A stretch of DNA of 48,006 nt from a virus (Duplodnaviria > Heunggongvirae > Uroviricota > Caudoviricetes). Under the pieces are notes generated by a model. It was not told the DNA's origin. It worked only from the letters and a program-made list of their open reading frames with translations, and searched no databases. Shown here one piece after another: positions 47,015 through 48,006 of the stretch. Each line of letters begins with the position of its first letter. The first letter of the stretch is position 1. The position numbers and the translations under genes are program-made. Where the stretch lies: the IMG/VR virus record IMGVR_UViG_2671180673_000006, one strand, 5' to 3'.

Positions 47015-47683
47015 CTATTTTTTCCCTGAAGCGGAAAACATTACTACAGTACCTTGAACCTTGGTTTTAACATTCTCGAAATGCTCTGAGAGTATATGTG
47101 TTAAGCCTTCTTCGGAATCTTTTGTGTTTGAAAAGATGCCTTTCTGATTGTAAATGCGCATCAGTTTTTGACCGAAGCTATTGTGCACAACTCCATCGCC
47201 AAGAATTGTGGCTCCGTATAGAGTTCCATCGTCAGTTAAGGCCTGCGCCGCATTGCGTATTACACAGCTTTTTGTAGATATATTTCCAGGCAGGCAGTGA
47301 AGAAGGTAAAACATGGAAATGGAATCAAATTGACCATGTAACGCCGCGGGATAAGGTTCAAAAACATCATGGCTAATTTTATGTTTAATTTTTGATTCCC
47401 CAGCCCTTGTAGATGCCGCGTTCAGGCTAGCTTCGTTCAAATCCATTAAAGATATCAGACTACTCTCAGGTACGTGAGTAAGGTAAAACCCAGTTCCAAC
47501 ACCAATATCCAGATGGTTGTTACCTACATGTTCCAGAAAGTGTGGAAGAAGGTGTTCCTTTGTAGGACATCCCCATGCAAGCCGATTTGATACTCCCAAA
47601 ACCCACCAGTCATAAAGCTTTAGGGTAAGTGGTGTGTAAATTTTAGCCCCATCATCTGTGTTTTTTTTCATTGATTTCACCAT
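47015..47683 (-). CDS. class I SAM-dependent methyltransferase (accessory gene)
   Basis: 222 aa (start 47683 or 47671); motif I ...LDIGVGTGFYL... of Rossmann-fold methyltransferases; clearly AT-rich versus the tail genes; opposite orientation. Confidence 0.65.
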   Translation of the reverse strand: MVKSMKKNTDDGAKIYTPLTLKLYDWWVLGVSNRLAWGCPTKEHLLPHFLEHVGNNHLDIGVGTGFYLTHVPESSLISLMDLNEASLNAASTRAGESKIKHKISHDVFEPYPAALHGQFDSISMFYLLHCLPGNISTKSCVIRNAAQALTDDGTLYGATILGDGVVHNSFGQKLMRIYNQKGIFSNTKDSEEGLTHILSEHFENVKTKVQGTVVMFSASGKK

Positions 47684-47739
47684 GTTATAGTTTTATTTGT
47701 GAATTAAATCAATTATGGCGATGAATTACAAGGGGTTAA

Positions 47740-48006
47740 ATGCTGCCGCAGCATAGCGATATTGAAATAGCCTGGTATGCTTCGATACAGCAGGAGCCGA
47801 ATGNCTGGAAGACCGTCACCACACAGTTCNACATCCAGGAATTCAGTGAGTATATTGCGCCACTGCAGGATGCTGTAGATCTGGAAATCGCAACGGCGGA
47901 AGAAAGATCGTTGCTGGAGGCATGGAATAAATATCGGGTATTGTTGAATCGTGTTGATACATCAACTGCACCTGATATTGAGTGGCCGACTTCACCTGCA
48001 GAGTAA
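47740..48006 (+). CDS. tail fibre assembly protein C-terminal paralog (truncated tfa-like ORF)
   Basis: 88 aa ending at the window edge with TAA; C-terminal about 50 aa near-duplicate of Tfa (...[47 protein letters not shown]...); N-terminus unrelated; contains n bases. Confidence 0.5.

Follow-up and report, generated by a model that had tools for sequence, protein, structure and literature searches.

The window, a 48,006-nucleotide (nt) stretch of a tailed phage (Caudoviricetes) from IMG/VR record IMGVR_UViG_2671180673_000006, is in gene layout a lambda-type prophage, and close to its right end, on the strand opposite to the tail fibre assembly gene tfa, it carries an intact copy of ybcY (47015-47683, minus strand), which encodes a stand-alone class I S-adenosylmethionine (SAM)-dependent methyltransferase. 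We consider it probable that this enzyme is a small-molecule methyltransferase which is expressed in the lysogen, damped by H-NS and irrelevant to virion production. The gene would be transcribed leftward from a sigma-70 promoter of its own, against the direction of the late operon, and would normally be kept down by H-NS, while its product would use SAM to methylate a small metabolite or lipid head group in the lysogen and would be involved neither in virion assembly nor in DNA modification. The locus is of the tfaD-ybcY-tfaX type, the ybcY module that forms the right end of many lambda-like Escherichia coli prophages, and its identity with YbcY is near certain. The finding is real but ordinary: beside a fossil open reading frame (ORF) of 88 residues lies a cargo gene, intact here, that is very common and already annotated.

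The identification is carried by protein as well as by DNA comparisons. The predicted product is 100% identical to WP_000240999.1, which stands for a cluster of 6589 member sequences, and it matches PHROG 2132, a family of unknown function, with an E-value of 4.2e-157, residues 5-222 aligning with profile positions 1-218 of 218. A megablast search with the region furthermore returned the same arrangement in the lambdoid phages PhiR26_1, PhiR30_1, PhiR29_1/2, 2G7b, ev243 and others, and in PhiR26_1 the gene is annotated as 'putative uncharacterized protein YbcY'. Among complete E. coli genomes, ybcY DNA (800 nt around the gene) is present in 3838 of 5426 (71%) at 95-100% nucleotide identity, with up to four copies per genome that are almost all chromosomal, and the three-part module consisting of a tfa 3' end, ybcY and a second tfa end is found in 3388, when counted at a coverage of at least 80% of the stretch. 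The order of a tfa 3' end, an oppositely oriented ybcY and a truncated tfa is shared by DLP12 of K-12, PhiR26_1, 2G7b and the strains 120899, 219 and 7/2, and the module closes prophages at potB, at ompW and at argU, the last being the DLP12 site. The gene, its position and the neighbouring truncated tfa are already known, since they are annotated in K-12 and in thousands of genomes, and the rarity implied by a sequence-only reading of this DNA is not borne out, ybcY being an ordinary conserved gene of the lineage, though it is indeed AT-rich in all E. coli genomes that carry it.

The closest described counterpart is the tfaD-ybcY-tfaX segment of DLP12 in K-12, where the order is a truncated terminase gene, tfaD, ybcY, tfaX and then appY-ompT. 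It contains the same gene at 98.9% nucleotide identity, and order, orientation, hairpin, spacer and promoter hexamers are likewise the same. However, K-12 has a frameshift in ybcY (b0562), a tfaD without the N-terminal part and a tfaX interrupted by a stop codon, whereas in the window both tfa and ybcY are intact and the 88-residue ORF is open. The right-hand surroundings differ as well, in that the module of DLP12 is followed by appY-ompT, while in strain 7/2, which is the nearest chromosomal match to the window, it is followed by the attachment site attR at potB. In all six of the non-K-12 loci inspected ybcY is intact.

With respect to the kind of enzyme, the earlier assignment of the 222-residue product to the class I SAM-dependent methyltransferases, encoded on the strand opposite to tfa, stands. 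Four Pfam profiles, Methyltransf_12, _23, _25 and _11, match above their cut-offs, motif I reads LDIGVGTG at residues 58-65, and strand 2 ends in an acidic residue, Asp81, which all 105 aligned sequences have in common. These 105 members, which reach down to 33% identity, form a family alignment, and an exhaustive homologue search gave 197 clusters (at 50% identity) with E < 1e-30, mostly of about 220 residues and with generic names. Besides Asp81, the residues Tyr24, His129, Gly157 and Asp189 are invariant in the alignment, and Tyr16, Asp25, Trp37, Cys39, His57, the glycines of GxGxG, Ser121, Cys130, Lys138, Asn179 and Asn186 are nearly so. When AlphaFold (AF2) was supplied with the 105-sequence alignment, it produced a model with a predicted local distance difference test score (pLDDT) of 92.9, as against 33 from the single sequence, and this model comprises a single domain with an N-terminal helical lid over a seven-stranded Rossmann-like sheet. 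From profiles and model we can conclude that YbcY is a class I (Rossmann-fold) SAM-dependent methyltransferase, for which SAM binding and methyl transfer are predicted.

The homology and structure searches thus place the protein in PHROG 2132/YbcY, with a fold nearest to those of small-molecule and lipid methyltransferases. The neighbours found by Foldseek include the bacterial phosphatidylethanolamine N-methyltransferase PmtA (8YS9), JHAMT and CysG/BelI, and furthermore the phosphoethanolamine N-methyltransferases of Plasmodium and plants, NodS, Coq5 and UbiG, with E-values of 4e-12 to 1e-9 and template modelling (TM) scores of 0.55-0.67. No single neighbour stands out among them, and PmtA, the phosphoethanolamine N-methyltransferases, JHAMT and CysG/BelI, like the rest, are only 13-21% identical to YbcY. 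A library of viral structures gave generic methyltransferase matches only, at TM scores below 0.63, and there are no DNA methyltransferases among the top fold matches listed. A regular-expression scan of YbcY likewise found neither the [DNS]PP[YFWH] nor the PC[QH] motif, but merely a lone ENV at residue 203 without PCQ. In NCBIfam nothing came near the cut-offs, CpaM, RquA and PmtA scoring 16-18 bits where 175-390 are required, and PADLOC returned no defence-system match of note, the marginal one being to mad2 with an E-value of 0.009. A profile search against the sequences of the PDB aligned His129-Cys130 with a His-His pair of CysG. In CysG/BelI a His-His-Asp motif binds the catalytic Ca2+ for carboxyl O-methylation (PMC11408123), whereas the YbcY family has cysteine in place of the second histidine in 102 of 105 members. 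Some distant relatives are fused to cytochrome P450 or RCC1 domains, which is a hint, but only a hint, of small-molecule chemistry. Taken from the fold, the conserved pocket residues (Tyr24, His129-Cys130 and Asp189), the missing motifs and the P450 fusion, the modelled evidence points to a small molecule or lipid as the substrate.

The gene had also been likened to ymfD of the e14 prophage. YmfD is indeed of similar length (about 220 residues), prophage-borne and matched by Pfam Methyltransf_12, but its gene lies elsewhere, beside lit and intE (ymfD-ymfE), and the proposed kinship has to be given up, as BLASTP against K-12 YmfD gave an E-value of 15 and hhalign a probability of 40% over 95 columns, all within the generic SAM-binding core. 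It is YbcY of DLP12 that is the named homologue.

The base composition of ybcY is foreign and sets it apart from the tail genes, as had been seen from the sequence in the first place. The G+C fraction (GC) is 0.411 for ybcY, and 0.359 at its third codon positions (GC3), as compared with 0.521 for the window, 0.561 for J, 0.552 for stf and 0.484 for tfa, and an equal AT-richness is reached by just 0.5% of all 669-nt segments; J, lom and stf together lie at 0.55-0.56. Between ybcY and the divergent 88-residue ORF there is an even more AT-rich spacer of 56 nt (47684-47739, GC 0.268), and this holds a putative sigma-70 promoter for ybcY, TTGATT-17-TATAAC (47684-47712, minus strand), the -10 hexamer of which abuts the first ATG. 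The string has one exact match in the window and none in 100 shuffles. Identical hexamers are given for ybcY among the constitutive RpoD promoters of K-12 determined by genomic SELEX (systematic evolution of ligands by exponential enrichment; Shimada et al., PMC3946193), and for the ybcY/tfaX spacer the set also lists H-NS. Among five lineages the spacer shows a single base difference, at 47720 in K-12, and this lies outside the promoter.

Because the -10 hexamer abuts the first ATG, the transcript probably starts inside codons 2-4, and the true start of translation is likely to be Met5 (47671), which would give a protein of 218 rather than 222 residues and a very short leader. This notion is furthermore in agreement with the length of 218 residues, beginning at Met5, of the PHROG 2132 profile and of most homologues, with the presence of Met5 in 102 of 105 family members and with the variability of residue 4, which is Ser or Leu among otherwise near-identical copies. 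At the other end of the gene the stop codon (47015-47017) is five bases from a strong hairpin just after the tfa stop (46974-47008). On the plus strand its centroid stem has -24.4 kcal/mol within a minimum free energy (MFE) fold of -28.6 kcal/mol (z -4.4), and the minus strand folds with an MFE of -25.4 kcal/mol (z -3.8). The hairpin is conserved with lambda, one C-G pair being changed to A-T by a double change that keeps the stem, and it probably serves the convergent transcripts of tfa and ybcY as a shared terminator or other 3'-end element.

The phage itself does not need ybcY, because the gene is deleted in phage Ayreon and frameshifted in K-12. In Ayreon (MF807953.1; 3880-4100 of the stretch examined) a clean deletion of about 660 bp has removed ybcY along with its promoter, and what remains is 42 nt from the 3' end of ybcY plus the distal spacer, ahead of a disrupted ORF of the PHROG 3893 type; Ayreon forms plaques and is therefore a natural ybcY knockout. 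Strain DETEC-P881 presents the reverse situation, a remnant at the DLP12 site in which int and tfa are pseudogenes but ybcY, next to ompT, is intact. This remnant is a minimal one at a tRNA-Arg gene (4020-6908 of the stretch examined), and it has no tfaX between ybcY and ompT. Homologues of 56-68% identity furthermore stand alone in the chromosomes of Enterobacter, Salmonella and Erwinia, away from any phage genes, and those of Aeromonas adjoin transposases. The Enterobacter homologue is AT-rich in relation to its surroundings (GC 0.39 vs 0.52), but that of Erwinia is not (0.56 vs 0.57). Alpha/beta hydrolase genes lie near homologues in three contexts, but these belong to different families and were treated as coincidence. 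The gene in the window combines a candidate promoter, a 3' hairpin and a GC of 0.41 vs 0.52 with absence from lambda and deletion in Ayreon, and as far as sequence features can tell it is an AT-rich cargo gene, or 'moron', forming its own transcription unit, with predicted expression from the repressed prophage.

Several observations weigh against a small-molecule enzyme expressed in the lysogen. The evidence for the RpoD promoter was obtained in vitro and comes from K-12, in which ybcY is a pseudogene, the hairpin has no adjacent U-tract and was not called as a terminator by a consensus scan, and the neighbourhoods of the homologues in Enterobacter, Salmonella, Erwinia and Aeromonas have no partner gene in common. 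Likewise, a substrate, activity or phenotype of ybcY was not found in the literature, which yielded incidental mentions only, namely a Keio mutant without Hha phenotype, a deletion in ethanol-evolved lines and a description of the ompT neighbourhood. Finally, the E. coli copies differ by 0-8 synonymous and 0-5 non-synonymous codons, numbers that are similar to each other and too small to show purifying selection. The last point also belongs to the notion that ybcY is a decaying, functionless passenger at a recombination hot-spot, common only since lambdoid prophages are common, and this notion may further draw on the K-12 frameshift, the viability of Ayreon without the gene, the binding of H-NS to the region and the clearly fossil state of the neighbouring tfaX. 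We nevertheless regard it as unlikely, in view of the 6589 members of the cluster of identical 222-residue proteins, of the intact gene in six out of six non-K-12 loci, including a remnant where the phage flanks are pseudogenes, and of a family that extends across many genera with pocket residues invariant down to 33% identity. An unusual invariant His-Cys-Asp pocket, which may bind metal, is central to the likewise unlikely suggestion that YbcY is a lysogenic-conversion enzyme whose substrate is a lipid of the host envelope, a metabolite or a toxin from outside. If this were true, lysogens would gain an advantage in fitness or superinfection exclusion, and it would be explained why a gene that is H-NS-silenced and dispensable to the phage is found in 71% of complete E. 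coli genomes, with a frameshift in K-12, and stays intact in a decayed prophage beside ompT.

A role of YbcY as an orphan nucleic-acid methyltransferase, acting on phage or host DNA or RNA in anti-restriction, epigenetic control or defence, is suggested by the frequency of orphan DNA methyltransferases in prophages, by the location near att that is typical for accessory genes, and by the marginal mad2 match; taken together with the fold matches and the motif scan described above, we find such a role quite improbable. Membership in the tail fibre module seems hardly credible at all. The idea would be that the enzyme methylates the fibre, Tfa or the receptor and is exchanged together with the determinants of host range, and it stems from the fact that ybcY adjoins stf-tfa and is bracketed by tfa sequence. 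The gene is however on the opposite strand and has its own promoter, its position is joined in 2G7b and Ayreon to unrelated fibres that need no Tfa, it is present where the tail genes are gone, it is separated from tfa in O157 by a catalase gene and yciEFG-like cargo, and it has homologues outside prophages. A small-molecule methyltransferase of the lysogen, without part in the virion, is the reading that we prefer.

The 88-residue ORF that follows ybcY (47740-48006, plus strand), the stop codon of which ends at the last base of the window, had been noted to be nearly a duplicate of the Tfa C-terminus in its C-terminal 50 residues, and this proved correct: the last 60 residues match Tfa residues 132-191 with 47 of 60 identical (78%, E 2e-30), and at the DNA level there is a direct repeat of 158 nt with 87% identity. 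The repeat search located the first copy, which encodes the conserved C-terminal helical domain of Tfa, at 46784-46941 and the second, a tfa 3' end fused in frame in what is a tfaX-type pseudogene with the conserved Tfa C-terminal domain only, at 47833-47990, both on the plus strand. The 5' part of the ORF (47740-47832, plus strand) has a different origin, as it is the remnant of an unrelated small phage gene of the PHROG 3893 type, which has 79 residues when intact. Residues 3-37 match PHROG 3893 with an E-value of 7e-5, the GC of 0.516 differs from that of ybcY and of the spacer, and tblastn with the start of the ORF found 53% identity to the start of a 79-residue ORF in Klebsiella phage Kp4882-3 and 74% identity to the disrupted copy in Ayreon. 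The Klebsiella phage locus (4001-4568 of the stretch examined) has the 79-residue ORF intact with an overlapping ORF of 130 residues downstream, and neither of the two has a Pfam match.

According to a passage in PMC9608196 that cites North et al. 2019, Tfa consists of a variable N-terminal domain that binds the fibre and a conserved C-terminal domain that mediates trimerisation. The full architecture is not found in the 88-residue ORF, the N-terminal 31 residues of which belong to PHROG 3893, and the coverage of the Pfam profile Caudo_TAP is confined to positions 75-131 of 131. Because only the C-terminal domain is encoded, the product would have no fibre-recognising part. The ORF matches PHROG 2341 from end to end, ORFs of the tfaX type are classed in RefSeq as N-terminally incomplete tfa pseudogenes, and their reading frame is interrupted by the internal stop in K-12 and by a deletion of 7 nt in 2G7b. 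Two ambiguous bases (N) at 47805 and 47831 fall inside the ORF, where relatives have G and T, giving Gly and Tyr. Judged by alignment, the 88-residue ORF is a chimeric fossil, with about 31 codons from an unrelated gene followed by about 57 codons of tfa, and the most plausible reading is that a crossover brought a small accessory gene and a tfa 3' end together and left this scar. Both tfa 3' ends are also matched by the Rfam entry IS009 (RF02111, type 'Gene'), the match at 46719-46917 (plus strand) scoring 225 bits, where the gathering score is 117, and that at 47763-47966 (plus strand) 107.9 bits. These matches lie inside DNA that codes, or once coded, for the Tfa C-terminal domain, and what IS009 represents is probably a coding stretch of tfa and not a small RNA.

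The position after tfa had been compared with the non-essential b region of lambda, and the comparison is apt: homology with lambda runs through tfa and the hairpin and ends at about 47009, whereupon lambda goes directly from tfa to ea47 of the b region. Lambda has leftward non-essential genes beyond this point, as has the window, but no ybcY and no second tfa end. Comparing the junction across relatives showed the tfa 3' end to be a recurrent joint with differing flanks on either side. To the left of the module, 2G7b and Ayreon have unrelated tail fibres with C-terminal ends resembling intramolecular chaperones, and a non-coding tfa 3' stub of about 120 nt with the hairpin is still found before the ybcY position. 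In five lineages hardly any variation is seen in the spacer or in the initial ~280 nt of the 88-residue ORF, and to the right of the second tfa copy the sequences then part at three breakpoints, which fall inside the tfa 3' end or directly behind it; the second tfa copy of strain 120899 includes the hairpin and then continues into lambda-like bases. The differing flanks support the view that mosaic joints have formed repeatedly at the conserved tfa 3' end, so that a conserved linker at mosaic boundaries, rather than a cassette in a fresh duplication, would be in place here. Being common to phages with different fibres, the tfa 3' end may repeatedly serve as a homologous crossover point, and since the DNA of the Tfa C-terminal domain is conserved across fibre types, this would lead to the module being joined to many fibre sets and right-hand flanks. 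Of the proposal that a cassette was exchanged by recombination at tfa sequences, the role of the tfa 3' end as a joint is thus upheld by the differing flanks, but a simple duplication of tfa is not, the 88-residue ORF being chimeric. A relic of an invertible segment, as in the alternative fibres of Mu, P1 and e14, was also considered and rejected, since the tfa ends are direct and not inverted and no invertase was seen in the region inspected. The interval from tfa to att is a cargo hot-spot. In O157:H7 146N4 (2337-4550 of the stretch examined) a manganese catalase gene and paralogues of the stress-protein genes yciE, yciF and yciG lie between tfa and ybcY, and tfaX is followed by an IS66 element, an alpha/beta hydrolase gene and ompT.

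The remainder of the window conforms to the lambda layout. At the left end an ORF of 428 residues (75-1361, minus strand) is probably the integrase, and downstream of it follows a rightward run of ORFs of late-operon size. The run includes J (39070-42567), lom (42638-43237) and stf (43296-46376) and ends with the full-length tfa (46376-46960, plus strand, 194 residues), which has a Caudo_TAP match with an E-value of 2e-44 and is about 94% identical to lambda tfa at the nucleotide level. The central part of stf (43700-44900), with a GC of about 0.61 and an AT skew of up to 0.48, encodes a long low-complexity repeat rich in Ala, Ser and Thr, and it gives rise to long spurious ORFs in other frames of both strands (335, 372 and 135 residues). 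Another ORF, of 45 residues (46933-47070, plus strand), extends from the tfa stop across the hairpin into the 3' end of ybcY; it goes by the RefSeq names 'hypothetical protein' (WP_001309429.1) and 'nucleocapsid protein' (WP_071592174.1) and is very likely a spurious call. A total of 58 single N bases are scattered through the window, for example at 23893 and 24481 in addition to 47805 and 47831, which suggests either a consensus over near-identical prophage copies or base calls of low quality.

With regard to annotation, the start of ybcY is probably Met5, ORFs of the tfaX type are chimeras and not duplicated chaperones, and the IS009 'sRNA' family matches tfa coding DNA. The locus moreover shows the coding end of the Tfa C-terminal domain in the capacity of a recombination linker between tail fibre modules and accessory regions. 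For the biology of E. coli and its prophages, ybcY is among the most widespread cargo genes of no known function, and the conserved His-Cys-Asp pocket of its product provides a concrete handle for biochemistry.

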